A stretch of 64,000 nucleotides of DNA from Candidatus Omnitrophota bacterium (GTDB lineage Bacteria > Omnitrophota > Gorgyraeia > 2-01-FULL-45-10), in the NCBI GenBank assembly GCA_018823705.1, contig JAHJHP010000031.1:1982-65981 (forward strand), in the 5' to 3' direction. The position numbers and the translations under genes were made by a program. Each line of letters begins with the position of its first letter. The stretch's first letter is position 1. Of the stretch, positions 2,730 to 31,764 are shown piece by piece. The notes under the pieces were generated by a model. It saw only the letters and a list, made by a program, of their open reading frames with translations, was not told where the DNA came from and made no database searches.

Positions 2730-2733
2730 AGAC

Positions 2734-2773: not shown

Positions 2774-2788
2774 AGAAGCGGCAACTGA

Positions 2789-9044: not shown

Positions 9045-9069
9045 ATGGGCCGCGCGCGGCAGATTTCGT

Positions 9070-9098
9070 TTGCTATTTAGCCGGTCGTCCCGTATAAT
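9070..9098 (+). promoter_or_regulatory. sigma70-like promoter (TTGCTA-17-TATAAT) upstream of lipoprotein gene
   Basis: Hexamers read directly from the sequence. RBS aaggagg follows. Confidence 0.45.
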
Positions 9099-9133
9099 TA
9101 ACAGCGATGGGTAAAAATTAAGGAGGTTAAGGA

Positions 9134-9643
9134 ATGAGCAGGAATAACCTAATCGGTTTAAGCATTATAGTTTTAGCGGCATTTAGTATTTCCGGATGCG
9201 GGACATCCCAGAAGAAAGTCCAGTCGGAGGTTACCGGTATTAAGACCAGGGTCGAGACTCTCGAGTCGAGAGTGGAAGGTGTCGAATCAAAACAGGCGGA
9301 TGTTGAGCGCATGACCGCCGAGCAGGCGCAGGCTCTTGATGATCTGAAATCCGTAAATATGCCCCAGCCCAATACAAATATAAGCATAAAACCCAGAGAG
9401 GGCGCGCGCGCCGGCAGGATGAAAGATATACAGCAGGCTCTTAAGAATGCGGGTTACTATGACGGTATGATCGACGGAGTAAAAGGTAAGGTCACGAAGA
9501 GGGCTATAAAAGATTTTCAGAAGTCCAATGGTCTCAAGGCTGATGGAGTGGTGGGCCGCAAGACATGGAACCTGCTCAGCGGTTATCTTTCAGCCGCGTC
9601 CGCAGTCCCGGCTTATCAGGGTGGGGACGAAGCCGTAAAATAA
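9134..9643 (+). CDS. lipoprotein with coiled-coil region and C-terminal peptidoglycan-binding (PG_binding_1-like) domain
   Basis: Lipobox LAAFSISGC. C-terminal IQQALKNAGYYDGMIDGVKGKVTKRAIKDFQKSNGLKADGVVGRKTW. Paralog of the 11466 gene. Confidence 0.7.
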   Translation: MSRNNLIGLSIIVLAAFSISGCGTSQKKVQSEVTGIKTRVETLESRVEGVESKQADVERMTAEQAQALDDLKSVNMPQPNTNISIKPREGARAGRMKDIQQALKNAGYYDGMIDGVKGKVTKRAIKDFQKSNGLKADGVVGRKTWNLLSGYLSAASAVPAYQGGDEAVK

Positions 9644-9699
9644 CGGATCGCTCTGGCTTATAACCAAGGGACAGAAGAGTTAAGGTGAAATTTTCCGTA

Positions 9700-9749
9700 C
9701 AAAGGGGCGCATCCTGGGCAATATAAGGGTTCGCCCCTTTCAAATTTTC
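9700..9749 (+). terminator. rho-independent terminator
   Basis: Stem aaaggggcg / cgccccttt followed by caaattttc. Confidence 0.55.
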
Positions 9750-9761
9750 AAGGAGGATGAG

Positions 9762-10247
9762 ATGAACGAGATAATAGAGATATTGGAGCGTGACGCGCGC
9801 GCGACCCCGGAAGAGATAGCGAAGATGCTCGGAATGACGAGCAAGGCCGTGGCTTTGGCGATAAAGAAGATGGAAAAAGAGGGTATCATACTCAAGTATA
9901 AGGCGATAATAAATAGAGAGATGTCAAAAGAAGAGCGTAATGATGTCCGCGCCCTGATAGAGGTAAAGCTTACTCCGCAGAAGAACGTAGGTTTCGATCA
10001 TCTGGCGGAACGCATATATCAGTTTCCGGAAGTAACGAGCTGCTATCTGATGTCCGGCACTTATGATCTTCTGGTAGTGGTCGAAGGCGGCAATATCCAC
10101 ACGGTCTCCAGCTTTGTCAGCGAAAAACTTTCCCCCATGGAAGGGGTGAGGGGGACGGTCACCCATTTTATATTGAAGAAATATAAGGAAGACGGAGATA
10201 TATTGAAACAGCCGGAGCGCTCCAAGCGGCCGGCAATAAGCCTATAA
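9762..10247 (+). CDS. Lrp/AsnC family transcriptional regulator
   Basis: N-terminal HTH (ILERDARATPEEIAKMLGMTSKAV) plus RAM/ACT-like C-terminal domain. Confidence 0.85.
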   Translation: MNEIIEILERDARATPEEIAKMLGMTSKAVALAIKKMEKEGIILKYKAIINREMSKEERNDVRALIEVKLTPQKNVGFDHLAERIYQFPEVTSCYLMSGTYDLLVVVEGGNIHTVSSFVSEKLSPMEGVRGTVTHFILKKYKEDGDILKQPERSKRPAISL

Positions 10248-16365: not shown

Positions 16366-18027
16366 ATGAATGTAAACAAGAGGCTGGGTGTCGCGTTCTT
16401 GTGGCACATGCATCAACCGTTTTACAAAGATCCGCTATCCGATAAATACCTCATGCCCTGGGTAAGGCTCCACGGGATCAAAGATTATTTTCCGATGGCC
16501 CGCCTTGTAGAAAATTTCGACAATATCAGGGTTACTTTCAATCTGGTTCCATCGCTCGTGGAGCAGATCAACGACTATGTTCAAAATGACGTCTCAGACG
16601 CATATCTTGATCTCACCGTAAAGAAAGCCAGTCTCCTTACGCTCGAGGATAAGGTGGAAATCCTGAACCATTTCTTCAAGGTAAATTTCAAACAGTTCAT
16701 CGAGCCTAACCCCAGATTTTCCGAACTCCTGATCAAAAAAGGGGTCAAACCCCTTACGGGGACTGCCCTCAAAAGAATGGTCAAGACATTCTCGAAGCGG
16801 GACTTCCTGGATCTGCAGGTGCTATTCAACCTCGCGTGGTTCCATTCCATATCTATCGATGATGATACGCAGCTCAATGACCTGATAAGGAAGGGCAAGA
16901 ATTACAACGAAGGCGATAAAGAGTATGTGGTCATTAAGCAGAAAGAGATAATGAGCCAGATCCTGCCGCTCTACAGGAGATTGCAGGACGAGGGGCGCAT
17001 AGAGATCACGACTACGCCTTTTTACCATCCGATTTTACCGCTTATATGCGACACTTCAGTAGCGAAGATTTCGCTCCCTCACTCACCGCTGCCGAAAAAA
17101 TATTCGCATCCGGAAGATGCCGAATGGCAGGTGGAGGCAGCGATAAAATACCATACTGAGCAGTTCGGCGCGCCTCCGCGGGGCATGTGGCCGTCCGAAG
17201 GCAGTGTATCGGATCAGATGCTCGATATATTGACAAAGAAAGGCATAGACTGGGTAGCGACTGACGAGGACATACTCTTTAACAGCCTGTCATTATATGA
17301 TAAGAACTATAAGGGCCAGACAGAATTCGACCGTCGTATAATATACCGTCCTTATACTTATAAGGTCGATTCGCGCCGTATCACGATGATCTTCAGGGAC
17401 AAGAACCTTTCCGATATTATCAGCTTCAACTATCACTCCTGGGACCAGGACGAAGCGGCCCGGGACCTGATAAATCACTGCAATAACGTGGGCGAGCGTA
17501 TGCGCCGCGATAACGACAGGGGCCTATTGACGATAGTCATGGACGGTGAAAATGCGTGGGAATACTTTGACGATAACGGCAGATTATTTTTCGATACGCT
17601 CTATGCCGGCCTCGATAAACAGGAACTTATAGGATCCACTACGGTGAGCGATTTTCTGGAGCTCGAAAGCTCCAAGAGATCGATAACTAAGGTATTCCCG
17701 GGATCGTGGATAAACCATAATTTCGATATTTGGATAGGCCAGGAACAGGATAATATGTCGTGGGACTATCTTAACAGAGTCAGGAAAGACCTCGTAAAAT
17801 TCACAAAAGAGGCTGAAGATGACCCCGGTGTGGACGGAGTCAGTATAGCGAGTGCCTGGCGGGAGTTGTATATAGCGGAAGGGAGCGACTGGAACTGGTG
17901 GTATACCGGCAAGGCTCATGCCGGCAAAGAAAACCCGTTCGACAAGCTGTACAGGACCCATTTAAAGAATATATACAGGCTTCTGAAGAAGCCGATTCCG
18001 GACTTTTTGAAGATTTCTATTGCATAA
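16366..18027 (+). CDS. GH57 family glycoside hydrolase (alpha-amylase / 4-alpha-glucanotransferase-like)
   Basis: WHMHQPFY GH57 region-I motif. 553 aa. Confidence 0.75.
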   Translation: MNVNKRLGVAFLWHMHQPFYKDPLSDKYLMPWVRLHGIKDYFPMARLVENFDNIRVTFNLVPSLVEQINDYVQNDVSDAYLDLTVKKASLLTLEDKVEILNHFFKVNFKQFIEPNPRFSELLIKKGVKPLTGTALKRMVKTFSKRDFLDLQVLFNLAWFHSISIDDDTQLNDLIRKGKNYNEGDKEYVVIKQKEIMSQILPLYRRLQDEGRIEITTTPFYHPILPLICDTSVAKISLPHSPLPKKYSHPEDAEWQVEAAIKYHTEQFGAPPRGMWPSEGSVSDQMLDILTKKGIDWVATDEDILFNSLSLYDKNYKGQTEFDRRIIYRPYTYKVDSRRITMIFRDKNLSDIISFNYHSWDQDEAARDLINHCNNVGERMRRDNDRGLLTIVMDGENAWEYFDDNGRLFFDTLYAGLDKQELIGSTTVSDFLELESSKRSITKVFPGSWINHNFDIWIGQEQDNMSWDYLNRVRKDLVKFTKEAEDDPGVDGVSIASAWRELYIAEGSDWNWWYTGKAHAGKENPFDKLYRTHLKNIYRLLKKPIPDFLKISIA

Positions 18028-18081
18028 GAAGCCCCGGATATGTATAATTAGGGCAAATTCTATGAAAGGAGGTAGTTAGTC

Positions 18082-18264
18082 ATGGCAAAAACGACTTTTA
18101 AAATAGGGAAGTCTTCCAATCCGCCGATGTCTAAGGAAGATATAAATTCGTTAATAGCGAAGAAATCCTATGAGCTTTACGAAAAGAGAGGCCGCAAGAG
18201 CGGTTATGCGCTGCAGGACTGGATTGAAGCTGAGAAGATCGTAAAGGGTAAGATCTCCAGATAA
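18082..18264 (+). CDS. DUF2934-like small protein
   Basis: 60 aa. KKSYELYEKRG...LQDWIEAE core shared with the 33539 paralog. RBS aaggagg. Confidence 0.55.
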   Translation: MAKTTFKIGKSSNPPMSKEDINSLIAKKSYELYEKRGRKSGYALQDWIEAEKIVKGKISR

Positions 18265-18298
18265 TCTGACTTTTCCCGTAACAGTTTATAAAATTTAG

Positions 18299-18336
18299 TA
18301 AGGCCGGACTTTAAATGCCCGGCCTTATTGTTTTAT
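18299..18336 (+). terminator. rho-independent terminator
   Basis: aaggccgg...ccggcctt hairpin followed by attgtttt. Confidence 0.6.
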
Positions 18337-18439
18337 CCTTCGGCTCCACTGCTGGCAAATCTCTTGTTTTTGGCGGTGTATATGATATAATTTGATATAA
18401 TTATAGTAAAAGGGGGGCGCTATTACGCAGTTATTTCTC

Positions 18440-19021
18440 TTGTCGTTTATACCTATATTTGTTGCGATGGATGTCCTTGGCATACTTCCGCTATATATCG
18501 GATTTACCGAGCATCTCAAGAAGAGAAATAAGCGGGATATCATCAGTCAATCGATCATAACGGCTTTCGTGATAGGCATAACATTCCTTTTTTTGGGCAA
18601 GTGGATATTCGAGCTACTCGGTGTCATGGTATTTGATTTTAAGATAGCCGGAGGGCTTGTCCTTTTAACCATAGCTCTCCGCGATCTTCTTCAGCACAGA
18701 AAGCCTCACAGATTATCGACAGATACTATGGGAGCCGTACCTATAGGCACGCCGCTTGTAACAGGCCCTGCGGTGCTGACTACGATGGTGATCCTCCTGG
18801 ATTCATACGGCATGTTCTTTACGGTCTTATCTTTTATCGTCAACCTGATGATAGTATGGGTCGTGTTTACCTTCGCGGATTCGATATTGAAGGTCCTGGG
18901 TAAGGCGGGCTCTAAAGCGCTGTCAAAGATAGCGCATCTTTTACTTGCCGCGATCGCGGTTATGATGATGCGCAAAGGGCTGTTTGACGCAATAACGTAC
19001 TTTACTTCTAAAGGTTTCTGA
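18440..19021 (+). CDS. MarC family (UPF0056) integral membrane protein
   Basis: FIPIFVAMDVLGILPLY N-terminus typical of MarC. About 6 TM helices. TTG start per the ORF track. Confidence 0.75.
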   Translation: MSFIPIFVAMDVLGILPLYIGFTEHLKKRNKRDIISQSIITAFVIGITFLFLGKWIFELLGVMVFDFKIAGGLVLLTIALRDLLQHRKPHRLSTDTMGAVPIGTPLVTGPAVLTTMVILLDSYGMFFTVLSFIVNLMIVWVVFTFADSILKVLGKAGSKALSKIAHLLLAAIAVMMMRKGLFDAITYFTSKGF

Positions 19022-19052
19022 CGGGCCATAGAAGGGCTGTGAAAAGGATTAT

Positions 19053-19670
19053 ATGATCTGGATGATAAAAGGCGGGCCGGTTATGATACCGATAATATTC
19101 GGTTCCATACTCGGCCTGGCGATAATAATCTGTAAACTTTGGCAGCTGTACGGGATCAGGATGGATGCCGAAAAGTTTACGGAGGGCGTCATATCCAGAG
19201 TTCGTCTTAAACGTTTTGACGAGGCTATCGAATACTGTTCCCGTAACACACGATATCCGCTCGCCATAACTTTGAAAGCCGGTCTTGAGAAGAGAACCCT
19301 GGCCGTTCATGAGATAGAGAAGGTCCTGGAGCGGGTCGGAAATACCCAGGTAAAGCGGCTCGAAAAATATATAGGCGGCCTGATATCGATAATCGGCATA
19401 GAACCGCTACTGGGATTTTTGGGAACGATCACAGGGTTAATAAAAGCCTTCATGGCGTGGGAGAGGGCAGGGTCGAATGTAACCGTATCCCAGCTGGCCG
19501 CCGGGATATATGGGGCGATGGTAACGACCGCGGCCGGCCTTATCGTAGCCGTGCCTTTCTACCTGATATGCAATTTCATTATCTCAAGAATAAAATATGT
19601 CTCCTACGAATTGAGTGATTCTTCGATGCAGCTTGTCGAGGCGATAGTCGAAGCGAAACACGGCGCATGA
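19053..19670 (+). CDS. exbB: MotA/TolQ/ExbB proton-channel family protein
   Basis: 3-TM topology with conserved C-terminal channel helices (GFLGTITGLI...AAGIYGAMVTTAAGLIVAVP). Confidence 0.85.
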   Translation: MIWMIKGGPVMIPIIFGSILGLAIIICKLWQLYGIRMDAEKFTEGVISRVRLKRFDEAIEYCSRNTRYPLAITLKAGLEKRTLAVHEIEKVLERVGNTQVKRLEKYIGGLISIIGIEPLLGFLGTITGLIKAFMAWERAGSNVTVSQLAAGIYGAMVTTAAGLIVAVPFYLICNFIISRIKYVSYELSDSSMQLVEAIVEAKHGA

Positions 19671-20107
19671 TTACCATAAGAGGCAAGAAAGATTATCTGG
19701 TGGCGCTCGAGTCCGTCGCGATGACGGACATAGTCATGAACATGTTTATATTCTTCTTCATCTCGTTCAGCCTGATATACACGTTCAATCCTGTAAAGAT
19801 GTCGAAGATTGAAGTGAGGCTTCCGAAAGCTTCCTCCGCCATAGCGCTGGAAGGTTCCGAGAGGTTGACCTTTGTAATCAATAAAGAAGGAAGTTATTTT
19901 ATAAACGAGGAAGAGGTCAGGCCTTCCGGCATAAAGGCAGCCCTTGAGGCGAAATTGAAAGAAAACGCGGCCTTGAGTGTTATCCTGAAGGTCGATGGTT
20001 CCGCTAAGTTCGATAATGTCGTAAAGGCGCTCGATATCATAAACGAACTGAACATACAGAAGATCAGTATAGCGTCTGTCAAGAATGACGAGGGGGCAAT
20101 CCAATGA
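19667..20107 (+). CDS. exbD: ExbD/TolR biopolymer transport protein
   Basis: Single TM (MTDIVMNMFIFFFISFSL) plus periplasmic domain. 4-bp overlap with exbB. Confidence 0.85.
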   Translation: MITIRGKKDYLVALESVAMTDIVMNMFIFFFISFSLIYTFNPVKMSKIEVRLPKASSAIALEGSERLTFVINKEGSYFINEEEVRPSGIKAALEAKLKENAALSVILKVDGSAKFDNVVKALDIINELNIQKISIASVKNDEGAIQ

Positions 20108-20748
20108 ATGTGATGATAATAGGATGCGGCAGGGTCGGTTCGCAGCTTGCTTTATTGCTGGCTCAGGAAGGCCATAACGTTACGATAATAGATAAAAATC
20201 CGGAAGCTTTTAAGAATCTGGGCGGGACATTTAACGGTATAGCGGCTACCGGCACCGGGTTCGATGAGAAACTTCTCGATGAGCTGAAGATAAACAAGCA
20301 GGACGCTTTCATATCGGTCACCAGCGGTGACAATACCAACCTGATGGCAAGCCAGATAGCCAAGAAGATGTTTAAGGTCCCCAGGGTGATAGCCCGCGTG
20401 TACGATCCGAAGAGAGCGGATATCTACAGAAAACTCGGGCTCGACGTTATAAGCGGGACAACGCTTGTGGCGGCCATGATAAGAGACAAGATAATAGAGA
20501 ACCGTTTTACGAGTTATCTTGTTGAAACTGGCGAGCTTGGCGTTATCGAGATTGTGGTAAACGGAGCTCTTAAAGATAAGAGAGTCAGCGAAATAAATAT
20601 CCCCGATGAATTTCTCGTTACCGTAATAGAGAGAAAGAAGAGGGTTATCATACCGCAGCCGGATGCCAGGCTCGAGATCGACGATAAGGTGATGGGTGTC
20701 GTCAGGACTTCCAGTTTAAAGAAAGTCAAAGAGAAATTTAAGCTATAG
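20104..20748 (+). CDS. TrkA/KtrA-type RCK (K+ uptake regulatory) protein, half-size
   Basis: MIIGCGRVGSQLALLL Rossmann RCK-N domain plus RCK-C domain. Confidence 0.85.
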   Translation: MNVMIIGCGRVGSQLALLLAQEGHNVTIIDKNPEAFKNLGGTFNGIAATGTGFDEKLLDELKINKQDAFISVTSGDNTNLMASQIAKKMFKVPRVIARVYDPKRADIYRKLGLDVISGTTLVAAMIRDKIIENRFTSYLVETGELGVIEIVVNGALKDKRVSEINIPDEFLVTVIERKKRVIIPQPDARLEIDDKVMGVVRTSSLKKVKEKFKL

Positions 20749-20781
20749 AAGTTCTTTGGATTAATCTTTAGGAGAAGCCAT

Positions 20782-21447
20782 ATGAATATAGTCATAGTAG
20801 GCGCAGGCAGGATAGGATTTAATCTGGCCCAGAAGCTTATTCAGGATAAGCACACCGTTACCATGATAGAAAAAGACAAGGTGAAGTGCGAAGGCATATC
20901 CATGTCACTGAATGCGTTTGTGATTAACGGTGACGGGTGTGAGGCAAGGTTCCTGGAAGATGCCGAGGTCGGCCGCGCGGATGTTGTGGCAGCCGTTACG
21001 GCGGATGATGAGGATAATCTTGTCATATGCCAGCTCGCTAAAGAAGTCTTCGGCGTCAGACGTACCGTGGCCAGAGTCAACAATCCGAAAAACGAACATA
21101 TATTTACTGAGCTCGGAGTCGATGTTCCGGTCAATGCTACAAAGATAATAGCCAAGATCATTGAGGAAGAGGTCTCTTTTGAGGATTTTATAAATCTGAT
21201 GACTTTCAAGCGCGGCAAACTGGCCCTGGTAAGGGTGGACCTCTCATCAGACTCGCCGATAATAAATAAGTACGTAAAAGATATAATATTGCCCGAGAAT
21301 TCGGTCTTCGTTACGATAGTAAGGGGAGCGCAGATAATCGTTCCAAAGGGTGATACGGTGCTTCAGAAAGGCGACGATGTAGTAGCTCTTACAGCCATAG
21401 AGAACGAACAGGCCCTGTTGGACCTGATGATAGGCAAAGTAGAATGA
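20782..21447 (+). CDS. second TrkA/KtrA-type RCK protein
   Basis: IVIVGAGRIGFNLAQKL RCK-N domain plus RCK-C domain. Confidence 0.85.
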   Translation: MNIVIVGAGRIGFNLAQKLIQDKHTVTMIEKDKVKCEGISMSLNAFVINGDGCEARFLEDAEVGRADVVAAVTADDEDNLVICQLAKEVFGVRRTVARVNNPKNEHIFTELGVDVPVNATKIIAKIIEEEVSFEDFINLMTFKRGKLALVRVDLSSDSPIINKYVKDIILPENSVFVTIVRGAQIIVPKGDTVLQKGDDVVALTAIENEQALLDLMIGKVE

Positions 21448-21583
21448 TAACCTTGATCAAGGCAAGATTAGTCATTAAGAACATCTGGAACGGTATCTTC
21501 GGCATAGCCTCCGAGATATCCCTGGCATTCCTTTTTATCGCCGCGGGATTTGTGGTCTGTTTTTTCTGGTGGAGTTTTTTTAA

Positions 21584-23089
21584 ATGATCCTGAAGCCGAC
21601 ATCTGAAGATTACAAGGTCATAGGCTATTATCTGGGAAAGATAATCATAGGCCTGGGATTATTGATGATGATCCCCCTCGTCATAGCCGCAGCTTATTCG
21701 GAGCTCGAACCCGTCGTAGACTATCTTTTGAGCATATCGGTTGCGCTATTTTTGGGAGTATTGCTTACCGGAGCTTGCCATACGAATAAGGATATCGCCG
21801 CAGGAAATGCCATGTGTATTGCAGCTCTCTCGTGGCTCGTCGCGATGGTCATATCCGCGATCCCTCTTTACCTTAGCGGCCATTACGCCTCGTATCTTGA
21901 CGCATGTTTTGAGACGATGAGCGGTTTCGCCACGACGGGGCTCTCTTTGACCAACGATATGGACAGTATGGCCCATGCTCACATTTTTTGGCGCCATTTT
22001 ACAATGTTCATCGGAGGACAGGGTATAGTGGTGATAGCCCTTACCTTCCTCTTTAGGGGCACTGCCGGAGCATTCAGGATATATATCGGCGAAGCGCGCG
22101 ACGAGAAGATATTACCGAACGTCATACACACGGCGCGTTTTATATGGCTCGTTAGCATCGTATATATGGTGCTTGGCACAATAGCTCTTTCGGCCTCCGC
22201 CATTATTGGAGGGCTATCTCCCGGCAAAGCCATATTCGATTCAGTCTGTATATTCATGGCGGCCTGGGATACCGGGGGTTTCACTCCACAGTCGCAAAGT
22301 ATACTTTTTTACCATAATCTTTCCTTTGAAATTATAACGGTAGTCATAATGCTGCTCGGTTCAATGAACTTTGCGCTTCATTACGTCGTATGGACGGGCA
22401 ATAGGAGAGAGTTGTATAAAAATATAGAGGTAATCACGCTCTTTATAAGCGTCGTTGTGACACTGTCCATAACCGCAGTGGGATTTTTCGGCCACGATAT
22501 TTACGGCGGTGCGGCGGCGTTCTTCAGGAAGGTCTTTTATCAGCTCATATCAGGCCATACAGGGACGGGCTATTCTACGATATACCCCGGGCAATTCGTA
22601 AATGAATGGGGGCCTCTGGCTATGCTGGGAGTGACTATAGCGATGGCGATAGGCGGATGCATGTGTTCGACCACAGGCGCCATTAAAGTCCTGCGGCTCG
22701 GGATACTATACAAAGCTTTACGGCAGGATATAAAGAAGGTACTGCTCCCCGAAAGCGCCGTAGTCGTGCAGAAATTTCATCACATAAAAGACGTTATTCT
22801 CGAGAATAAGCATGTCAGGATGTCGGCTATCATTCTGCTCTCTTACCTGGGGCTTTATATGCTGGGTACCGTGGTAGCGATGTTATGCGGTTATTCCTTA
22901 AGCGAAGCCGCGTTCGAATCAGTATCGGCTGCCGCCAACGTCGGATTATCCTGTGGTATAACCAAGCCGTCAATGCCGTTGGTTCTCAAGATTACGTATA
23001 TGTTCCAGATGTGGGCGGGAAGACTCGAATTCATCGCGATATTTGCCCTTGGCGGCATGATCGTCGCGGCGTTGAAAGGCAAGAGATGA
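21584..23089 (+). CDS. trkH: TrkH/KtrB family potassium transporter
   Basis: 501 aa polytopic protein with repeated MPM pore-loop motifs (TMSGFATTG, GGCMCSTTGAIKVLR). Confidence 0.85.
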   Translation: MILKPTSEDYKVIGYYLGKIIIGLGLLMMIPLVIAAAYSELEPVVDYLLSISVALFLGVLLTGACHTNKDIAAGNAMCIAALSWLVAMVISAIPLYLSGHYASYLDACFETMSGFATTGLSLTNDMDSMAHAHIFWRHFTMFIGGQGIVVIALTFLFRGTAGAFRIYIGEARDEKILPNVIHTARFIWLVSIVYMVLGTIALSASAIIGGLSPGKAIFDSVCIFMAAWDTGGFTPQSQSILFYHNLSFEIITVVIMLLGSMNFALHYVVWTGNRRELYKNIEVITLFISVVVTLSITAVGFFGHDIYGGAAAFFRKVFYQLISGHTGTGYSTIYPGQFVNEWGPLAMLGVTIAMAIGGCMCSTTGAIKVLRLGILYKALRQDIKKVLLPESAVVVQKFHHIKDVILENKHVRMSAIILLSYLGLYMLGTVVAMLCGYSLSEAAFESVSAAANVGLSCGITKPSMPLVLKITYMFQMWAGRLEFIAIFALGGMIVAALKGKR

Positions 23090-23571
23090 AGAATCTGTAT
23101 GTCCTGATCATCGCGCTCGTTATGATAGCGTTGCCGCGCCCGGATGTCTACGCGGAAGTGAAGCCTATTACCAGTATAGAGCTTATAAGAGACGCCAATA
23201 GTCTCGATGGTAGCGTTATTACGTATAAAGGAGAGATAGTAGCGGCCATTATGAAGCGGGGAGACCATTCCTGGGTGAATCTGAACGACGGTTATAAGGC
23301 CATCGGGGTATGGTGCAAAACAAGCTCTCTCAGCGACGTAAAGACGCTGGGTGATTATAAGAACGAAGGCGATATACTGGAAGTAACGGGCGTATTTCAC
23401 AGGGCCTGTCCGGAGCATGGCGGTGAATTGGATATACACGCCGAAGCCCTGAGAATAGAGGCCCTGGGGTTTCCTGTGGAAGAACGCGTCTCCATGCGGA
23501 GAGTCAATATCTCCATAGCGTTCTTTATAATGGCTCTCTTAGCCATATTCATGCTTAGAAAAAGGTTATAA
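23086..23571 (+). CDS. hypothetical secreted protein with C-terminal TM anchor
   Basis: ATG overlaps the trkH stop. Signal peptide at N-terminus and hydrophobic C-terminus. The track ORF 22885..23571 is an upstream in-frame extension. Confidence 0.45.
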   Translation: MKNLYVLIIALVMIALPRPDVYAEVKPITSIELIRDANSLDGSVITYKGEIVAAIMKRGDHSWVNLNDGYKAIGVWCKTSSLSDVKTLGDYKNEGDILEVTGVFHRACPEHGGELDIHAEALRIEALGFPVEERVSMRRVNISIAFFIMALLAIFMLRKRL

Positions 23572-23579
23572 AACAGCAT

Positions 23580-24908
23580 ATGATAACTAATCTGAACGAG
23601 GCGAGAGCGATTGCCGCGGAGATGTTCATAAATTTCTCCGATCTTTTGAAGAAGGACGTCATTGCTTTTGACGGAGCATACATAGGAAAGGTTTGGGACG
23701 TATCTTCCAAGCTGGGCGAGATCTATCCTAAAGCCGAGGAGCTCATAATATATAAGGGAACAGTCAACCGTCTTTATGCGAGCGTTCCCTGGCCTGAGGT
23801 AGGGCAGGTGGCGGATGAAATAGTGCTGAATATCAAAAAAGACGATCTGAAGTTTTCATCCGAAATAAAAGATAGCGAGCTCATGCTCAGACGCGATGTC
23901 CTGGATCAGCAGGTAGTGGATACATTTAACCACAACGTGCGCCGTGTCAATGACGTACAGCTGCTGAAGGTCGATCATGATCTCGTTATTGCGCATGTCG
24001 ATATAGGTTTAAGCGGATTATTCAGAAGGCTTGGCTGGGACAAGTTCATAGGCCTTCTTATGAAGCTGGTATCTAAAGATTCATGGCGTTCTAAATCCAA
24101 GGATCTCATTTCCTGGAAATATGTGCAGCCCGTCACTATAAATCCCGCCAGCATGAAAATGAAGTTATCTGTGTCGGAAAAACAGCTCCTCTCCATCCCT
24201 CCGGCAGATCTCGGCGATATCATATTTGACCTTAACCCAAACCAGAGGATGGCGCTATTCAGGGTCCTCGATATAATGACCAAGGCAAAGATATTTGAGA
24301 ACCTGGAATTTGACGAACAGAATTTAATACTTAAGGAGCTCGACAAGAAAGAGGCGGCCCAGATAGTGGGCACTATGTCGACAGACGAAGCTACAGACCT
24401 GCTCGAGAGGCTCTCTCCCAGGACCGTAAATAACCTGCTGCCGCTCATCGAATCGTCGCGGGCGAAGAAGTTATCGACGCTCCTGGGATATTCAGGCGAT
24501 TCGGCAGGCGGCCTGATGACGACAGAATTTGTATCTCTTCCTGAAATGACCCTGGTCGAGGGAGCCATTATGTACATAAAGACCAATACAAAAAATTATG
24601 ACACGGTGCCGTACATATACATCGTAGACGACAAAAACCACCTGAAAGGCGTCACTACTATCAGGAGGCTCTTATTCGCGGATCCTAAAGACCCAATTTC
24701 TAAAACGGCTTTTCAGCAGACCCTTCACGTTTACCTGAATAACAGCGCTAAAGAGATAGCGTACTTCATGGATAAGTACAAAGTATCGGCCATACCGGTC
24801 ATAGACGAGAATAAAGTGATGCAAGGCATCATCACGATCGATGATATATTGAGTCAGGTCATAGCTATTGCGTGGAGAAAGAGACCGCGGACGCCTAAGG
24901 GATTGTAA
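23580..24908 (+). CDS. soluble MgtE-N-domain plus CBS-pair protein (no transmembrane domain)
   Basis: MgtE N-terminal-domain-like region (DEATDLLERLSPRTVNNLLPLIESSRAKKLSTLLGY) followed by two CBS motifs. No hydrophobic helices. Confidence 0.6.
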   Translation: MITNLNEARAIAAEMFINFSDLLKKDVIAFDGAYIGKVWDVSSKLGEIYPKAEELIIYKGTVNRLYASVPWPEVGQVADEIVLNIKKDDLKFSSEIKDSELMLRRDVLDQQVVDTFNHNVRRVNDVQLLKVDHDLVIAHVDIGLSGLFRRLGWDKFIGLLMKLVSKDSWRSKSKDLISWKYVQPVTINPASMKMKLSVSEKQLLSIPPADLGDIIFDLNPNQRMALFRVLDIMTKAKIFENLEFDEQNLILKELDKKEAAQIVGTMSTDEATDLLERLSPRTVNNLLPLIESSRAKKLSTLLGYSGDSAGGLMTTEFVSLPEMTLVEGAIMYIKTNTKNYDTVPYIYIVDDKNHLKGVTTIRRLLFADPKDPISKTAFQQTLHVYLNNSAKEIAYFMDKYKVSAIPVIDENKVMQGIITIDDILSQVIAIAWRKRPRTPKGL

Positions 24909-24917
24909 GGGAAACGT

Positions 24918-26171
24918 ATGAATAGCAGCGATGCGGTAAAAAAACCTTCTTCATGGAAGAGCCTTCTCATATTCCTGAGCGTGATGGGCCCCGGTATAAT
25001 TACCGCGAACGTTGATAATGACGCCGGAGGTATAGCGACATATTCCGTAGCCGGCGCGCATTTCGGATATTCGCTGCTGTGGATATTCATTCCGATGACG
25101 GTTGCCCTTATAGTCATTCAGGAGATGTGCTCCAGGATGGGCGTAGTAACGGGCAAGGGCCTGGCGGACCTGATCAGGGAAAAGTTCGGAGTGAAGGTGA
25201 CGTTCTACGCCATGCTTGTATTGATATTTTCCAACCTGACCAATACGATAAGCGAATTCTCCGGCATCGCTGCAAGCTGTGAAATATTCGGTATATCCAA
25301 ATATGTATCGGTCCCGATGGCGGCCATATTTGTCTGGTGGGTAGTCGTGAAGGGGACATACAAATCGGTCGAGAAGGTATTTCTCGGAGCCTGCCTGTTT
25401 TATCTCGCGTATGTTATTACCGGATTCCGGGTTGAGCCTTCATGGGGTGAGGTTTTGAAAGAGACGATAACGCCTTCATTTCATTTTAATAAAGCCTTTA
25501 TCCTCATGGTGATGGGTGTCGTAGGTACGACTATAGCCCCTTGGATGCAGTTCTATCAGCAGTCTTCGGTAGTGGAAAAAGGTATAAGCGTAAAAGACTA
25601 CAAATATGCCAGGCTGGACGTGATCATCGGAGGCGTACTTGTAAGCATCATAGCGATGTTCATCATGATATCGTGCGCCGCTACGCTCTTTAAGAGCGGT
25701 ATCAGGATAGAGTCCGCCAAGGACGCCGCGCTTGCGCTGGAGCCCCTCGCCGGCCGTTACTGCTCAAAACTATTTGCGTTCGGGCTCCTGAACGCCTCGG
25801 TATTTGCCGCGATGATACTGCCGCTCGCGACCGCGTACTCCGTATGCGAGGGGCTCGGCTGGGAGAACGGAGTCGATAAACGTTTTAAGGACGCGCCCCA
25901 GTTTTACTTCCTCTTTACCGCGCTGATTATAATAGGCGCAGGTTTCATAATGTTCCCGAATATAAATCTTATAATGGTCATGCTCTTATCTCAGGCGGCA
26001 AATTCCGTGTTTCTGCCGTTCGTCCTTGTATTCATGCTGCTTCTCATAAATGATAAGCGGCTGATGGGCGAGCACAGGAACTCCAGATTTTTTAATATAG
26101 TATCGTGGGCGACGGTTGTCGTAACGGTCTCCCTGACATTAGGTCTTACGATCACCATGTTTCTGGGGTAA
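24918..26171 (+). CDS. NRAMP/SLC11-family transporter with non-canonical metal-binding site (possible Mg2+-type NRAMP-related transporter)
   Basis: NRAMP TM1/TM6 architecture is recognisable. The DPGN motif is replaced by VDNDAGG and the MPH motif by APW. Confidence 0.7.
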   Translation: MNSSDAVKKPSSWKSLLIFLSVMGPGIITANVDNDAGGIATYSVAGAHFGYSLLWIFIPMTVALIVIQEMCSRMGVVTGKGLADLIREKFGVKVTFYAMLVLIFSNLTNTISEFSGIAASCEIFGISKYVSVPMAAIFVWWVVVKGTYKSVEKVFLGACLFYLAYVITGFRVEPSWGEVLKETITPSFHFNKAFILMVMGVVGTTIAPWMQFYQQSSVVEKGISVKDYKYARLDVIIGGVLVSIIAMFIMISCAATLFKSGIRIESAKDAALALEPLAGRYCSKLFAFGLLNASVFAAMILPLATAYSVCEGLGWENGVDKRFKDAPQFYFLFTALIIIGAGFIMFPNINLIMVMLLSQAANSVFLPFVLVFMLLLINDKRLMGEHRNSRFFNIVSWATVVVTVSLTLGLTITMFLG

Positions 26172-26188
26172 TAATAAAGAAAGGACAT

Positions 26189-26782
26189 ATGAAGATAAGG
26201 CATTATTTCGCGACAGGGTTCCTGATATCATTACCGGTATTCATAACGCTCTATTTAATTTTTATAATATTCCGTTTCATCGACGGGATATTCGGCAAGG
26301 TGATCAATTTTTATATAATGCGGTATCTGGGTTTCACGATACCCGGCGTCGGTATTATAATAAGCCTCATCATAGTATTCGCGGTAGGATTTACCGCCGC
26401 CAACTTCTTTGGCAAGAGGATAATGCACGCTCTCGAAGGCTGGTTTTTAAAGTTTCCGTTCATCCGCCAGATATATCCGGCCGCAAAACAGATAGTCGAC
26501 TCTTTCATCTCCAAAGATAGTCCGGCTTTTAAGAAAGTGGTATTGGTGCAGTATCCGTCAAAAGGGGTCTGGGCGGTAGGATTTCTTACGAATGAGAGTT
26601 TTAAAGAAGCAAATGAGAAGGCGGGCCGGGAACTTCTACACGTATTTATAGCCACAACGCCGAGCCCGTTTACAGGTTATCTTGCGCTCATTCCGAAAGA
26701 GGATGTCCGGTATCTTGACATGTCGATAGAGGAAGGGATAAAGCTTATCGTCTCGGGAGGCATCGTAAAGCCCGCCATGTAG
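26189..26782 (+). CDS. DUF502 family membrane protein
   Basis: Two N-terminal TM helices and a conserved FTGYLALIPKEDV C-terminal region. Start chosen at the ATG after RBS aaggacat. Confidence 0.55.
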   Translation: MKIRHYFATGFLISLPVFITLYLIFIIFRFIDGIFGKVINFYIMRYLGFTIPGVGIIISLIIVFAVGFTAANFFGKRIMHALEGWFLKFPFIRQIYPAAKQIVDSFISKDSPAFKKVVLVQYPSKGVWAVGFLTNESFKEANEKAGRELLHVFIATTPSPFTGYLALIPKEDVRYLDMSIEEGIKLIVSGGIVKPAM

Positions 26783-26802
26783 GCGCGTTAGAAGCTATAA
26801 TC

Positions 26803-27831
26803 ATGAAAGAATTAATACAGACTATATTGATATTCTTCCTGCTGATGCTGTCCGCCATAACGGCCGCGGCGGAAATCTCCATAATATCCGCGGGCCGGCT
26901 CAGACTCAGGCGTCTGGCATCCGAAGGCTCCAGGCGCGCCGCGATCATCCTGAAGATACTTGAGACGCCGGAACGCTTCTTCAGCACTATCCTGGTATCG
27001 AACAACGTTGTCGATACATTGATAGCGGTCCTTATCACCGCTATCGTTATACGGTTTATGGGACAGGGCGGGTGGGAAGTCGTAACCTCCACAATCGTCG
27101 CGGCCTTACTCATAATAGTATTCGAAGTCACCGCCAAGACTATAGCGGCAAATTATTCCGAGCGGATGTCGTTATATCTCGCCCGGCCTATGAGATTATT
27201 GATAAAATTATTTTCTCCCCTTGTCATCGGTTTCGAAGTGATAATAAACGCGATCTTAAGGGTGATCAGGGCCAAGACGCTCGCAAAGGCGTCTCTGGTG
27301 ACTGACGAAGAGATAAGGGCTATGATCAAGATAGGCCAGGAAGAAGGGAGCCTGCAAAAAGAGAAGTACAGCATGATAACCAAGGTATACGCCCTTCATG
27401 ACGCTGTGGTCAAGACTGTGATGACACCCAGGAAAGATATATTTTCGATCAACGCGCTCGCCGGTATGGACGATATATTGGCGAGGGTGCTGGAATCCGG
27501 ATATTCCAGGATACCCGTGTATACGGATAGCCCCGATAATATATCCGGTATAATAAATATGAAGGATCTTCTGATGCTCTCATCGAATAGAGATCTCGTA
27601 GTCCTGCAGGATATTATCTACCCTCCCACGGTTGTAAACGAATCGAAGAAAGTCACCGAGCTTCTTAAGGAGTTCCAGAAGGGGCATACGCATATAGCGA
27701 TCGTAGTCGATAACCAGAACAAGGTTCAGGGTATCATCACCCTTGAAGACCTTGTCGAAGAGATCGTGGGTGAAATAGAGGACGAGTACGACGTGAGGGT
27801 CAATAATTACAAGGCCAGGCATATCGAATGA
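26803..27831 (+). CDS. CNNM/CorC-HlyC family protein (DUF21 transmembrane domain plus CBS pair); putative Mg2+/divalent-cation efflux
   Basis: DUF21 region ISIISAGRLRLRRLASEGS. Tandem CBS domains. Confidence 0.75.
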   Translation: MKELIQTILIFFLLMLSAITAAAEISIISAGRLRLRRLASEGSRRAAIILKILETPERFFSTILVSNNVVDTLIAVLITAIVIRFMGQGGWEVVTSTIVAALLIIVFEVTAKTIAANYSERMSLYLARPMRLLIKLFSPLVIGFEVIINAILRVIRAKTLAKASLVTDEEIRAMIKIGQEEGSLQKEKYSMITKVYALHDAVVKTVMTPRKDIFSINALAGMDDILARVLESGYSRIPVYTDSPDNISGIINMKDLLMLSSNRDLVVLQDIIYPPTVVNESKKVTELLKEFQKGHTHIAIVVDNQNKVQGIITLEDLVEEIVGEIEDEYDVRVNNYKARHIE

Positions 27832-28475
27832 AGCGGTACAGGATAGTATATGAAGACGGCCGGCTGATCGTTATCGATAAACCCTCGGGAATGCTTGTAA
27901 TCCCCACCCCGAAGAGAGAGACAAACACTCTTACGGATCTGGTCAATAAAGAGCTGGATGCGCGCGGCGTCGAGGTGAATGCTTACCCCTGTCACAGGCT
28001 GGACAGAGAGACTTCAGGGCTCGTCATATACGCGAAAGGTAAGTCTGCCCAGCATGCCATGATGGAAGAATTCCGCAAAAGGTCGGTTAAAAAGGTGTAT
28101 GTGGCGTTCGTAAACGGCATAGTGAAGAAAAGATTTGATACTATAAAGGATCCTATCTATAATAGGAATAAGCGGAAAACTGATGATGCGGTAACGAAAT
28201 ATACTGTACTGGAGAAGCATGCCGCGTTTACGGTAATAGAAGCCGAGCCGGTCACGGGCAGAACTAACCAGATACGTATACATATGAAGTCGATAGGCCA
28301 TCCGCTTGTGGGCGAGACGGTGTATGCTTTCAGGAAAGATTTTAAGCTGCGCTTTAAAAGAGCCGCGCTTCACGCGAAGCGCATAGAATTTAATCATCCG
28401 GTCACCGGCGAGAAGATGAGCTTCGAATCACCGCTTGCTGCCGATATGGTAAATTTTTTAAAAGGCACGGACTAA
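27828..28475 (+). CDS. RluA-family pseudouridine synthase
   Basis: HRLDRETSGLVIYAK catalytic Asp motif. Confidence 0.85.
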   Translation: MKRYRIVYEDGRLIVIDKPSGMLVIPTPKRETNTLTDLVNKELDARGVEVNAYPCHRLDRETSGLVIYAKGKSAQHAMMEEFRKRSVKKVYVAFVNGIVKKRFDTIKDPIYNRNKRKTDDAVTKYTVLEKHAAFTVIEAEPVTGRTNQIRIHMKSIGHPLVGETVYAFRKDFKLRFKRAALHAKRIEFNHPVTGEKMSFESPLAADMVNFLKGTD

Positions 28476-28486
28476 CCGGAGGATTT

Positions 28487-29938
28487 ATGAGCGGTATATT
28501 CGGAGTGGCATCGAAGCACGATTGCGTGAGGGACCTTTTTTACGGGACGGACTATCATTCCCATCTGGGCACCGAATTCGGGGGGATGGCGGTCCTGGGT
28601 AAGAAGTTCACCAGGCAGATACATAATATAAGCCAGACGCAGTTCAAATCGAAGTTTTACGAGGATTCCAGGCTGATGTCCGGCACCAAGGGCATCGGAG
28701 TGATAAGCGCGCATGACGAACAACCTATCTACATAAATTCCAGGTTCGGGCCCTTCTGTATAGTGACCAACGGATTTATAGAGAATGCCGAAAAATTGGC
28801 CGCCGGGCTTATGGATAGAGGGGTGTCTTTCAGCGAGGTCACAAAAGGTTCCGTGAATATCACGGAGCTTATAGCCAAACTCATTGTGGAAGGAAGCTCT
28901 ATAGTAAGCGGGATAGAAAAGATGTTCGAGATGATAGAGGGATCTTGCTCGCTGCTGTTGCTGAATAAGGACGGTATATATGCCGCGCGCGACAGGTACG
29001 GGTATACTTCGATGGTGCTCGGTAAGCGCAAAGACGCCTGGGCTGTCACCTCGGAGACATCGGCATTTCCCAATAACGGTTTTGAGATCGCAAGTGACCT
29101 GGGCCCCGGCGAGATAGTCCTTATAAATGAGGACGGCCCCCAGGTAAAGAAGGTTCAGGGCGTCAGATCCCAAATCTGCACTTTCTTTTGGATATATACG
29201 GGATTTCCGGCGTCCACCTACGAAGGCGTAAATACCGAGATCGTCAGGGAGAGATCCGGCCGTTTTCTGGCAAAGCGCGACAAGGATATAGGCGTGGATC
29301 TTGTGGCAGGCGTTCCGGACTCGGGTGTGGGGCATGCTATAGGATACGCGATGGAATCCGGCAAACCCTACAGGCGTCCGCTGGTAAAGTATACGCCCGG
29401 TTACGGCAGAAGCTATACTCCACCGTCTCAGGAGACCAGGGACCTTATAGCAACGATGAAGCTGATACCCGTGAAAGAGATAATTGATTCACAGCGCATC
29501 GTGCTATGCGAAGATTCAATAGTGCGCGGCACACAGCTCAAGAACTTCGCGATCAAAAAACTATGGAGCGCGGGAGCCAAAGAGATACATGTGAGGCCTG
29601 CCTGTCCGCCGCTTATGTTCCCCTGCCGCTTCAATCTTTCGACGCGCACTATAAATGAACTTGTTGCGCGCAGGGCGATACGCAGCATCGAAGGGCGTGA
29701 TGTCGCGGATGTAGCAGCCTATATTGATCATAAATCTCCGAAATACAGAAAGATGGTGGATTGGATCGCGAAATATATCGGAGTCACAACCCTCAGATAC
29801 CAGACTGTGGATGACATGGTAAAGGCGATAGGCCTCCCCAGGGAGAAGCTTTGTCTATATTGCTGGACAGGTGAATGTTGCGGCAAGTCCTCCTGCCGGA
29901 AGAAGAGCAAAGAGAGCGAAACGGTTTTAAAATCATAA
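28487..29938 (+). CDS. purF: amidophosphoribosyltransferase-like protein (PurF homolog; N-terminal nucleophile position is Ser not Cys; Cys-rich C-terminal tail)
   Basis: Ntn-amidotransferase fold plus PRTase motif VLCEDSIVRGTQ. Begins MSGIFGV where canonical PurF has MCGI. Tail CLYCWTGECCGKSSC. Confidence 0.7.
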   Translation: MSGIFGVASKHDCVRDLFYGTDYHSHLGTEFGGMAVLGKKFTRQIHNISQTQFKSKFYEDSRLMSGTKGIGVISAHDEQPIYINSRFGPFCIVTNGFIENAEKLAAGLMDRGVSFSEVTKGSVNITELIAKLIVEGSSIVSGIEKMFEMIEGSCSLLLLNKDGIYAARDRYGYTSMVLGKRKDAWAVTSETSAFPNNGFEIASDLGPGEIVLINEDGPQVKKVQGVRSQICTFFWIYTGFPASTYEGVNTEIVRERSGRFLAKRDKDIGVDLVAGVPDSGVGHAIGYAMESGKPYRRPLVKYTPGYGRSYTPPSQETRDLIATMKLIPVKEIIDSQRIVLCEDSIVRGTQLKNFAIKKLWSAGAKEIHVRPACPPLMFPCRFNLSTRTINELVARRAIRSIEGRDVADVAAYIDHKSPKYRKMVDWIAKYIGVTTLRYQTVDDMVKAIGLPREKLCLYCWTGECCGKSSCRKKSKESETVLKS

Positions 29939-29953
29939 TCAAAGGAAGATAAT

Positions 29954-30427
29954 ATGCAAGAAGGTTCCTACCTTTCAAGCGCAGGGCATGAAAAGCTGAG
30001 TAAAGAACTGGAGCAATTAAAGACGGTAAAACGCAGGGCGCTGTCAAAGGCGATCGGCGAAGCGAGAGCCCATGGAGACATCAGCGAGAACGCCGAATAT
30101 GACGCCGCGAAAGAGGCTCAGGGGCTGAATGAGAAAAGGATCTCGGAGCTTGAGAATAAACTCGCGGCCTCTCAGATAATAGATGAAGAGCAGATGTCAT
30201 CCGATGAAGTGTTGGTCGGGGCAACCGTTCAGCTGGCCGATATCAAATCGGGCCGTGAGATCACTTATACCCTGGTGGCGGAGGAAGAGGCCGACTATTC
30301 AAAGGGTATGATATCAGTATCTTCTCCGGTCGGCAGCGGGCTTCTGAATCACAAAGAAGGCGATACGGTCGAGATTAAGGTGCCGGCAGGAGTCCTAAAA
30401 TATAAGGTACTTAAGATATCGAGATGA
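29954..30427 (+). CDS. greA: transcription elongation factor GreA
   Basis: N-terminal coiled coil plus FKBP-like C-terminal domain. 157 aa. Confidence 0.9.
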   Translation: MQEGSYLSSAGHEKLSKELEQLKTVKRRALSKAIGEARAHGDISENAEYDAAKEAQGLNEKRISELENKLAASQIIDEEQMSSDEVLVGATVQLADIKSGREITYTLVAEEEADYSKGMISVSSPVGSGLLNHKEGDTVEIKVPAGVLKYKVLKISR

Positions 30428-31764
30428 CACTAAACGCGATGAAGACCCTCGAAAGAGACCTTCGTTTATCCAGGAGAGAGCTTGAAAGCATAGTCAAAAG
30501 CTTTCACCAAGAGATGAAAAAGGGCCTCACGGGGTCATCGGGTTCCCTGAAGATGATCCCCACCTATGTCGACAGACCCACCGGAAGCGAAAAAGGGAGA
30601 TACCTCGCCCTGGACCTGGGAGGTACGAACTTCAGGATACTGAGCCTGACGCTAAAGGGGCGCGGCATTCCCTCTGATAAACGGGTCATGAAGTTCGCGC
30701 TGAGGAAAAGGGATATCTCCACTACAGGCAAGAGGCTCTTTAAGTTCCTGGCCGGATCGATCAAAAAATTCATCAAAGAAAAGAAGATAGACCTCTCCGG
30801 AAGTATAGATCTCGGCTTCACATTCTCTTTTCCGGTCAAGACTACCGGCCCGGCCAGCGGGACGCTCATCGTCTGGACTAAGGGTTTCAGCGCAAGCGGC
30901 GTAGAAGGGCGCGATGTCGTGGCCCTATTGGAAAGGGCTATCGCGGACGAGAAGATCGACAACATATCTGTGGTAGCGCTTGCCAACGATACCGTAGGCA
31001 CGCTGGTGGCCAGGAGTTACGATGATAAAGATTGCGATGTCGGAGTCATAATAGGAACCGGCACCAATGCCTGTTACGTGGAAGATCTCCGTAATATCAG
31101 GAAGATGAAGAACCTGCGCCGGCAGCCTGGCACGATGATAATCAATATAGAGTGGGGTAATTTCAACAGGCTTAAAGCAACGCGATATGACAGGCAGCTT
31201 GACGGAGAGTCTATCAATCCCGGCGCCCAGATACTGGAGAAGATGGTCTCCGGAATGTATCTTGGCGAACTTTGCAGGCTCATAGCCGTCGACCTCATAT
31301 CCGAAAAGATATTATTCGGCGGCAGGGCCTGCGGAAACTTTAATAAAAATATGGCTTTTAGCGGCGAATTTGTGTCACAGGTATTGGCGGACAGGTCCCG
31401 GGGCTTGAGCGGGATCATATCTTTGTTACGGCGCCTGGGCGTGAAAGATCCGGGAACTGAAGACGGAAAAACGATAAGAAAGATCTGTAGCCTGCTGGCG
31501 GTAAGGGCCGCGCGCATAAGCGCCGCCGCGATATTCGCGGTCATCACCAGGATAGATCCGGATATAAAGAAGAGGCATATCGTTGCCATAGACGGCAGCG
31601 TTTATGAAAAACTTCCCGGATTTGCTGAAAATATTAAAAGTGCCGTTAGTGAATTATCGGGCGTTCGGACGGGGAAGATAAGGATATCGCTGACTAAAGA
31701 CGGTTCAGGCTATGGCGCGGCTATTATCGCGGCGGTGTCATCGGCGGAGGGGGACACTAAGTGA
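30424..31764 (+). CDS. hexokinase-family sugar kinase (eukaryote-type hexokinase fold)
   Basis: LALDLGGTNFRIL phosphate-1 motif. IGTGTNACYVE. 446 aa. Confidence 0.75.
   Translation: MTLNAMKTLERDLRLSRRELESIVKSFHQEMKKGLTGSSGSLKMIPTYVDRPTGSEKGRYLALDLGGTNFRILSLTLKGRGIPSDKRVMKFALRKRDISTTGKRLFKFLAGSIKKFIKEKKIDLSGSIDLGFTFSFPVKTTGPASGTLIVWTKGFSASGVEGRDVVALLERAIADEKIDNISVVALANDTVGTLVARSYDDKDCDVGVIIGTGTNACYVEDLRNIRKMKNLRRQPGTMIINIEWGNFNRLKATRYDRQLDGESINPGAQILEKMVSGMYLGELCRLIAVDLISEKILFGGRACGNFNKNMAFSGEFVSQVLADRSRGLSGIISLLRRLGVKDPGTEDGKTIRKICSLLAVRAARISAAAIFAVITRIDPDIKKRHIVAIDGSVYEKLPGFAENIKSAVSELSGVRTGKIRISLTKDGSGYGAAIIAAVSSAEGDTK

Follow-up and report, generated by a model that had tools for sequence, protein, structure and literature searches.

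In a 64,000-nucleotide window of DNA from a Candidatus Omnitrophota bacterium (assembly GCA_018823705.1, contig JAHJHP010000031.1, positions 1,982 to 65,981; all coordinates for this locus are those of the window), we describe two adjacent plus-strand genes that form a conserved two-gene module. The downstream gene (24918-26171) encodes a 417-residue protein that its sequence clearly places among the NRMTs, the NRAMP-related Mg2+/Mn2+ transporters. The upstream gene (23580-24908), which ends 9 nucleotides before it, encodes a soluble partner of 442 residues in which a tandem PRC-barrel unit is followed by an MgtE_N domain, a CBS pair and, at the C-terminus, a short basic tail. The pair adds an ordinary Omnitrophota case to a two-gene arrangement that was published in 2014 (PMC4072509). 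The tandem PRC-barrel unit of the partner goes beyond that published description, and it is a trait of the whole family rather than a peculiarity of this window.

The linkage holds in both directions. In a search covering one genome for each species, at least 597 NRMT loci were found; we analysed the best 80, whose transporters share 55-81% identity with that of the window. These loci span Omnitrophota, Syntrophales, Geobacterales, Nitrospirota, Acidobacteriota, Zixibacteria, Spirochaetes and Firmicutes, and they also include the archaea Methanobacterium and Methanocellaceae. Enough upstream DNA to judge the presence of the partner was available in 74 of them, and it lies beside the NRMT gene in 65, immediately upstream on the same strand in 62 and convergently downstream in three; the remaining nine are without it. 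Its homologs in these genome loci are full-length proteins of about 405-455 residues. In the reverse survey, 80 metagenome loci were picked by homology to the partner, and NRMT adjoins it in 70 of the 73 with sufficient downstream DNA; the other three are L126, where a full-length MgtE channel is encoded, and two loci without NRMT. The two genes are arranged tail to tail in L054, L062 and L066 and again in L114-L117, L119 and L123, and therefore the linkage is kept without co-transcription.

Some loci depart from this arrangement. The NRMT genes of L043, L051, L077, L061, L063, L078 and L081 have 3.4-7 kb of upstream DNA, yet no partner gene. L043, L051 and L077 belong to magnetotactic Nitrospirota, and in L051 a gene for a canonical CNNM protein (motif GELLPK) lies divergently upstream. 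Apparent fusions of partner and transporter in L046 and L036 were artefacts, of a high-GC stop-free frame and of an alignment running past a stop codon, and the genes are separate in both loci.

The placement of the transporter follows from its scores and its signature residues. The protein matches the Pfam Nramp family (PF01566, E 1e-104) from end to end of the profile (positions 1-357 of 357), and its best match in the PDB is EleNRMT (7qia; E 1.4e-120, 406 bits, about 50% identity over 406 residues), followed at a distance by BfraNramp with 103 bits and DraNramp with at most 84. Against the NCBIfam MntH model it scores 148 bits, where the cut-off is 430. A first-pass annotation of this DNA had aligned the motifs VDNDAGG and APW...Q by hand to sites where canonical NRAMPs carry DPGN and M-P-H...H, had proposed an NRMT-type protein, and had named a canonical MntH placement with DPGN/MPH residues as the observation that would overturn the idea. 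No such placement is seen, and the Pfam and PDB matches, far beyond chance at E 1e-104 to 1e-120, show the hand alignment to be right. V32-D-N-D35-A-G-G38 aligns with the canonical DPGN and with D55-A-G-G58 of EleNRMT, the D35-A-G-G38 portion (25020-25031) being the helix-1 DxxG motif, while A207-P-W209, followed by Q214/Q215, aligns with M-P-H...H. The helix-6 stretch T204-T-I-A207-P-W209 (25527-25544), a TxxA motif and then a Trp that substitutes for the first His, is identical to T224-T-I-A227-P-W229 of EleNRMT.

Further positions agree with this assignment. W209 and Q214 occupy the two helix-6b positions of the proton-pathway histidines, where EleNRMT has W229 and N234, and E113 on helix 3 and Q359 on helix 10 correspond to EleNRMT E133 and Q379. 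In the PDB alignment I103 and T110 fill two further helix-3 positions, which we take to be those of the proton-pathway residues E124 and D131 of DraNramp. The defining marks of the NRMT clade are a DxxG motif in helix 1 and a TxxA/T motif in helix 6 (PMC8806188), which stand where canonical Nramps have DPGN and AxxM. As a group, NRMTs are sister to canonical SLC11. Since the score gap and the signature residues decide the placement, the product of 24918-26171 is assigned as an NRMT, an orthologue-level relative of EleNRMT; identity as a canonical Nramp or MntH is ruled out by DAGG, by TTIAPW...Q and by a score below the MntH cut-off. EleNRMT transports both Mg2+ and Mn2+, and its T224 is needed for the transport of Mg2+ and much less for that of Mn2+ (PMC8806188). 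It is plausible but not certain that Mg2+ rather than Mn2+ is the physiological substrate of the window protein.

The upstream gene had been read as a protein without transmembrane segments that corresponds to the cytoplasmic module of MgtE, and this reading also stands. Pfam detects MgtE_N (PF03448, E 2e-22; residues 201-305, 24180-24494), a helical domain, together with two CBS domains (residues 306-430, 24495-24869) and a weak PRC-barrel match, and residues 203-426 match the cytosolic domain of Thermus thermophilus MgtE by profile (PDB 2yvy, E 8e-43). The match to the NCBIfam mgtE model TIGR00400 is confined to profile positions 24-252 of 450. Neither the MgtE membrane domain PF01769 (Pfam) nor any hydrophobic or transmembrane segment (KD19 maximum 1.52) is found in the window partner. 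Because it has no hydrophobic segment and its mgtE match stops at position 252, the partner is the cytoplasmic part of MgtE without the pore. The chain ends 16 residues after the second CBS domain, and the plug helix is absent; at the position of this acidic helix in MgtE stands the C-terminal tail IAWRKRPRTPKGL, hydrophobic and then polybasic (24870-24908, including the stop codon). With neither PF01769 nor a plug helix, identity as an MgtE channel is ruled out. Among 51 diverse partners, 28 carry a tail with a net charge of at least +3.

How much of the Mg2+-sensing chemistry is retained was assessed by mapping the Mg2+ and ATP sites of MgtE, with the Mg2+ sites of the T. thermophilus protein as defined in PMC5882242, onto an alignment of these 51 partners. 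The Mg4 ligands D91 and D247 are kept as D269 and D422 (in 43/51 and 42/51 partners, respectively) and the Mg6 ligand D95 as D273 (50/51). Those of Mg5 and Mg7 are lost in the window partner. The ATP contacts Y170 and R187 are kept in the window partner as Y345 and R362, although nucleotide binding is uncertain from the residues at this site. A full-length AlphaFold2 model built from a shallow alignment (predicted local distance difference test, pLDDT, 68.6; predicted template modelling score, pTM, 0.38) did not give the domain arrangement, and its top Foldseek matches, reported for the MgtE half only, are MgtE cytoplasmic domains.

About 200 residues, passed over by the first-pass annotation, precede MgtE_N in the partner, and they are confidently modelled as a tandem PRC-barrel unit: in the AlphaFold2 prediction from a diverse alignment, residues 1-200 fold into a single compact unit (pLDDT 89.5, pTM 0.82). 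The first barrel (residues 16-92, 23625-23855) is found by Pfam in 49 of the 51 diverse partners. The second barrel (residues 100-200, 23877-24179) is PRC-like and divergent, and it includes two helices and an ISW..VQP strand; a second, weaker PRC-like Pfam match falls on its residues 100-150. It contains the most conserved stretch of the partner, LDxQ(I/V)VD..G.KV.RVND...HVD(I/V)G.RG..RRLG, with D109, Q111, D114, R122, D125 and R150 invariant. Conservation averages 0.64 in the PRC part, 0.55 in MgtE_N and 0.50 in the CBS pair. A link between PRC barrels and MgtE was not found in the literature reachable by text search.

The same N-terminal unit also occurs on genuine channels. Searching it against 1.84 billion representative proteins gave 874 clusters, most of about 420-450 residues and several of 593-656, and the MgtE membrane domain is present in four of the five long proteins that were scanned (P0192, P0230, P0244 and P0250; no match in P0213). 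In the metagenome locus L126, positions 1320-3236 encode a full-length PRC-MgtE with both plug helix and membrane domain, in which the acidic plug motif EEEATEDI is kept. Since the PRC-PRC-MgtE_N-CBS order is also found fused to an MgtE pore, the NRMT partner corresponds to the entire cytoplasmic portion of a long MgtE subfamily. We found this long architecture described nowhere in the searched literature. Further long proteins beginning with the tandem unit are encoded in L086 (334-2115) and L087 (1603-3390). No NRMT gene lies beside the long MgtE in P0244 and P0230, both on short contigs, or in L126. Relatives of the unit of only about 200 residues could not be counted as free-standing PRC proteins, the one checked (P0137) being cut by a contig end.

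Riboswitches tie some of these loci to Mg2+. In the NrmT family an upstream M-box is frequent without being obligatory. Three M-boxes confirmed by Rfam served to build a covariance model, and with it 9 of the 80 genome loci, belonging to Geobacterales, Firmicutes and Terriglobia, were seen to have an M-box directly upstream of the pair or of a lone NRMT gene. The sites are L026 5448-5615, L030 1-93, L036 5449-5616, L059 5441-5611, L063 6557-6723, L067 5412-5585, L069 5098-5276, L071 4440-4617 and L084 3728-3903. M-boxes thus precede close homologs of 55-60% identity, including those of Terriglobia; this model detected none in any Omnitrophota locus among the 80. The M-box of L063 stands immediately before an NRMT gene without a partner. 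Four Terriglobia metagenome-assembled genomes (MAGs) carry the element, though none was reported for A. capsulatum by Shin et al. (PMC4072509).

Two further genes follow the pair. All four open reading frames are present on the plus strand within 23580-27831, with the Pfam domains that the first-pass annotation had assigned to them, and proteins identical to those of the window occur in MAGs labelled Candidatus Omnitrophica or Omnitrophota. The third gene encodes a DUF502 membrane protein (26189-26782; a start at 26189 is preferred over one at 26105) and the fourth a non-canonical CNNM/CorB-like protein with a DUF21 domain and a CBS pair (26803-27831); both lie outside the conserved module. 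The annotation had gone on to propose that the four genes form one Mg2+ homeostasis locus. For the pair, a connection to Mg2+ survives the comparison across genomes, given its linkage and the M-boxes; for the other two genes it does not, as both occur downstream of NRMT in only two of the 80 loci, namely those of the nearest Omnitrophota relatives (L006 and L007). In L006 about 1.9 kb (about 8250-10160) is inserted between NRMT and the DUF502 gene, so the four-gene order is not strictly contiguous even within this clade.

Gene packing says little about membership here. Throughout 1-64000 each 2-kb bin has a positive GC skew and each gene inspected is on the plus strand; the window belongs to a single replichore in which strand bias is very strong. 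That genes run in one direction at short distances is for this reason a weak argument for an operon. The four genes are separated by 9-20 nucleotides, and spacing is uninformative since every gene from trkA through the glutamine amidotransferase gene, one for a pseudouridine synthase included, is packed alike at -4 to +33 nucleotides. Scanning 17500-30500 for promoters and terminators revealed no plus-strand terminator-like site from the trkH stop (23089) to 30500, and the promoter-like sites in the scanned region are weak and numerous, so that operon limits cannot be set. Directly upstream of the pair is a K+ uptake cluster (20104-23571) with two trkA genes, a 47-codon open reading frame and trkH. 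After trkH comes an unannotated open reading frame of 161 residues (23086-23571) whose product has a signal-like N-terminus, a C-terminal transmembrane segment and no Pfam match. Gene ends in this cluster overlap by 4 nucleotides. L006 likewise has trkH upstream of its partner gene, and in L086 the long MgtE is followed by trkA genes.

The fourth gene had been taken to encode an Mg2+ efflux-type protein of the CNNM/CorC kind, and we find this label not justified. The family assignment itself is clear from Pfam (CNNM, E 2e-42; CBS, E 8e-18), and in the PDB the protein comes closest to MtCorB (7m1t, E 2e-50). Three residues of the pi-helical GEIxPK motif in the third transmembrane helix, Glu, Ile and Pro, are described as invariant in organisms ranging from archaea to humans (PMC8242095); here the motif reads F107-E108-V-T-A111-K112, with the Gly deleted and the Pro replaced by Ala. 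Among the Ser ligands of the first transmembrane helix, S21 is retained as S17 and S25 has become A21. The same VFEV(T/V)AK is found in both orthologs, those of L006 and L007, which makes it a clade variant and not a sequencing error. The protein falls below every curated NCBIfam cut-off, and GldE and the polyamine exporter PaeA outscore CorC. Many bacterial CorB/CorC proteins have a C-terminal CorC_HlyC domain; Pfam finds none in this protein, which ends at residue 342, shortly past its second CBS domain.

The two-gene unit has a published history. Shin et al. named NrmT in 2014, reported that two C. acetobutylicum genes (Ca_c0685/Ca_c3329) rescue an Mg2+-transport mutant, and noted that most nrmT genes adjoin a gene with homology to MgtE's N-terminal cytoplasmic domain, whose product they proposed, as speculation, to be a cytoplasmic feedback regulator or a chaperone (PMC4072509). 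The NrmT of A. capsulatum (the Acp2976-2977 pair) rescued an Mn2+-uptake mutant in full and an Mg2+-uptake mutant only at millimolar Mg2+ (PMC4072509). The partner was not discussed in the later structural work on EleNRMT. The modular Mg2+-gated uptake suggested by the first-pass annotation is, in our analysis, the feedback hypothesis of 2014 and not a new one.

We favour, with somewhat more belief than doubt, the reading that the pair is a conserved NRMT module in which an Mg2+-sensing partner restrains the transporter in trans. By analogy with EleNRMT, a widened LeuT-fold site, formed by the helix-1 Asp and Gly, the helix-6 Thr and Ala and the helix-10 Gln, would accept largely hydrated Mg2+, and Mn2+ as well. 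As an NRMT without the proton pathway, the transporter probably works without proton coupling, again judging from EleNRMT, and an NRMT would be expected to carry Mg2+ and Mn2+ but not Ca2+. The most likely role of the partner would be to sense cytoplasmic Mg2+: as in MgtE, Mg2+ may make the N domain close onto the CBS domain, and this closure could be relayed in trans to the NRMT through the PRC unit, the basic tail or both. Uptake that is otherwise unregulated would then be limited when cytoplasmic Mg2+ is sufficient. The tandem PRC unit and, in this lineage, the basic tail might provide docking or oligomerisation. It is tempting to extend this idea, although here we are inclined to doubt, and to see in PRC-PRC-MgtE_N-CBS a portable Mg2+ gate, acting in cis on the long MgtE pore and in trans on NRMT, with the second PRC barrel docking, oligomerising or binding extra metal.

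Several observations weigh against restraint in trans by an Mg2+ sensor. The plug helix that serves as the covalent gating relay in MgtE is absent from the partner, and no natural fusion of partner and NRMT was found in the genome loci, nor any protein of about 850 residues among the 150 best relatives of the PRC unit. Two of the four MgtE cytosolic Mg2+ sites that were checked are lost in the window partner: at Mg7, E59 is replaced by K237 (E or D in 37 of the 51 partners), and at Mg5, D226 and D250 are replaced by K401 and S425. At the ATP site the stacking Phe F227 has become V402, and N203 has become F378. No M-box was detected in the window, either at the Rfam gathering score over the 64 kb, at E<=1 over 17000-25200, or with our own model. 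The experimental record points the same way, as NrmT rescues without its partner, co-expression of the A. capsulatum pair left rescue unchanged and this pair behaved mainly as an Mn2+ importer (PMC4072509), and EleNRMT is active alone in liposomes (PMC8806188). The null effect of the A. capsulatum partner is not decisive on inhibition, because a rescue assay would not reveal it. For MgtE, loss of regulation was exposed by scoring toxicity at high Mg2+ and hypersensitivity to Co2+, Ni2+ and Mn2+ (PMC5529423).

Some of these observations lend themselves to other explanations. The pair could serve primarily in the uptake of Mn2+ or of mixed divalent cations, with the partner sensing Mn2+ or another signal. 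The A. capsulatum rescue data and the Mn2+ transport of EleNRMT speak for this, as do the missing M-box and the lost Mg5 and Mg7 ligands in the window; yet the helix-6 Thr on which Mg2+ transport by EleNRMT depends is present as T204, the Mg4 and Mg6 ligands are kept, and M-boxes stand before homologs at 55-60% identity, so that we regard an Mn2+ system as the less probable case, though one to be taken seriously. Alternatively, the partner may not gate at all and may instead be a chaperone or buffer for metal, or an adaptor that controls the stability or localisation of NRMT. Shin et al. raised the chaperone role (PMC4072509), PRC-barrel proteins can serve as protein-protein adaptors, as CdpB1 does in binding SepF, and there is no plug helix to pass gating on. 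However, the whole N-CBS unit of MgtE, inter-domain Mg2+ ligands included, is conserved across phyla, and the PRC-PRC-MgtE_N-CBS unit is also found on real MgtE pores, where gating is established; a partner without any gating role thus appears improbable to us.

We give as little weight to the idea that all four genes make up an Mg2+ homeostasis locus, in which partner-gated import by NRMT would be matched by efflux or regulation through the DUF502 and CNNM proteins. The genes are co-directional and closely spaced, their order is kept in L007 and, apart from the insertion, in L006, and the best structural relative of the CNNM homolog, MtCorB, is an Mg2+ transporter. Against this, 78 of the 80 NRMT loci lack DUF502 and CNNM genes downstream, unrelated genes are packed as tightly throughout the stretch, the CNNM homolog has lost the pi-helix Gly and Pro and one Ser ligand and has sub-cut-off NCBIfam scores, and DUF502 has no known function.

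By itself, the window locus adds an Omnitrophota example to a described module and changes little. The broader interest lies in the NRMT partner, whose function has stayed putative since 2014 despite a near-obligate two-way linkage across bacterial and archaeal phyla. Our results sharpen this question, since the partner is more than a fragment of MgtE: it has a conserved PRC unit, the complete form of the partner is also carried by some genuine MgtE channels, and a short, often polybasic tail takes the place of the plug. Mutagenesis and complex prediction can be aimed at these features. How a transporter of Mg2+ that is presumably not coupled to protons avoids overloading the cell will be of interest to transporter specialists. 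If the unit were indeed a portable gate, it would be the first MgtE-type sensor controlling an SLC11-type transporter, and a function would be assigned to a PRC domain that is absent from the searched literature.

With the MgtE channel of T. thermophilus (PDB 2YVX/2ZY9/5X9H), the partner shares a homologous N domain and CBS pair, the acidic Mg4 and Mg6 ligands and the ATP-contacting Tyr and Arg; it differs in having neither plug helix, pore nor Mg5/Mg7 ligands, and in adding the N-terminal PRC-PRC unit and the basic tail. Whereas MgtE regulates its own pore, any regulation by the partner would act in trans on an unrelated LeuT-fold transporter. The long MgtE channels have the same PRC-PRC-MgtE_N-CBS order, with 31-32% identity over about 175 residues of the N-terminal unit, but possess a membrane domain and an acidic plug helix of their own, of which the partner has neither. 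The likeness to the archaeal cell-division PRC-barrel proteins CdpB1 and CdpB2 (PDB 8QZO, 8ONW) is one of fold only, at 18% identity, and implies no functional link to cell division. EleNRMT of Eggerthella lenta (PDB 7QIA/7QIC/7QJI/7QJJ; PMC8806188) and the window transporter have in common the DxxG and TxxA motifs, the Trp, the helix-3 Glu, the helix-10 Gln and their length, and neither has extra domains. They differ at the second helix-6b His position, Gln in the window protein and Asn in EleNRMT, and in host phylum, Omnitrophota as against Actinomycetota, the window protein being known from its sequence alone. The closest parallel at the level of the locus is with the pairs of Shin et al. 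(PMC4072509): there too a gene for a protein homologous to the N and CBS domains of MgtE comes directly before nrmT on one strand, and the feedback hypothesis is shared. Points of difference are that the window has no M-box and that its partner is a protein of 442 residues in which the first 200 form the tandem PRC unit.

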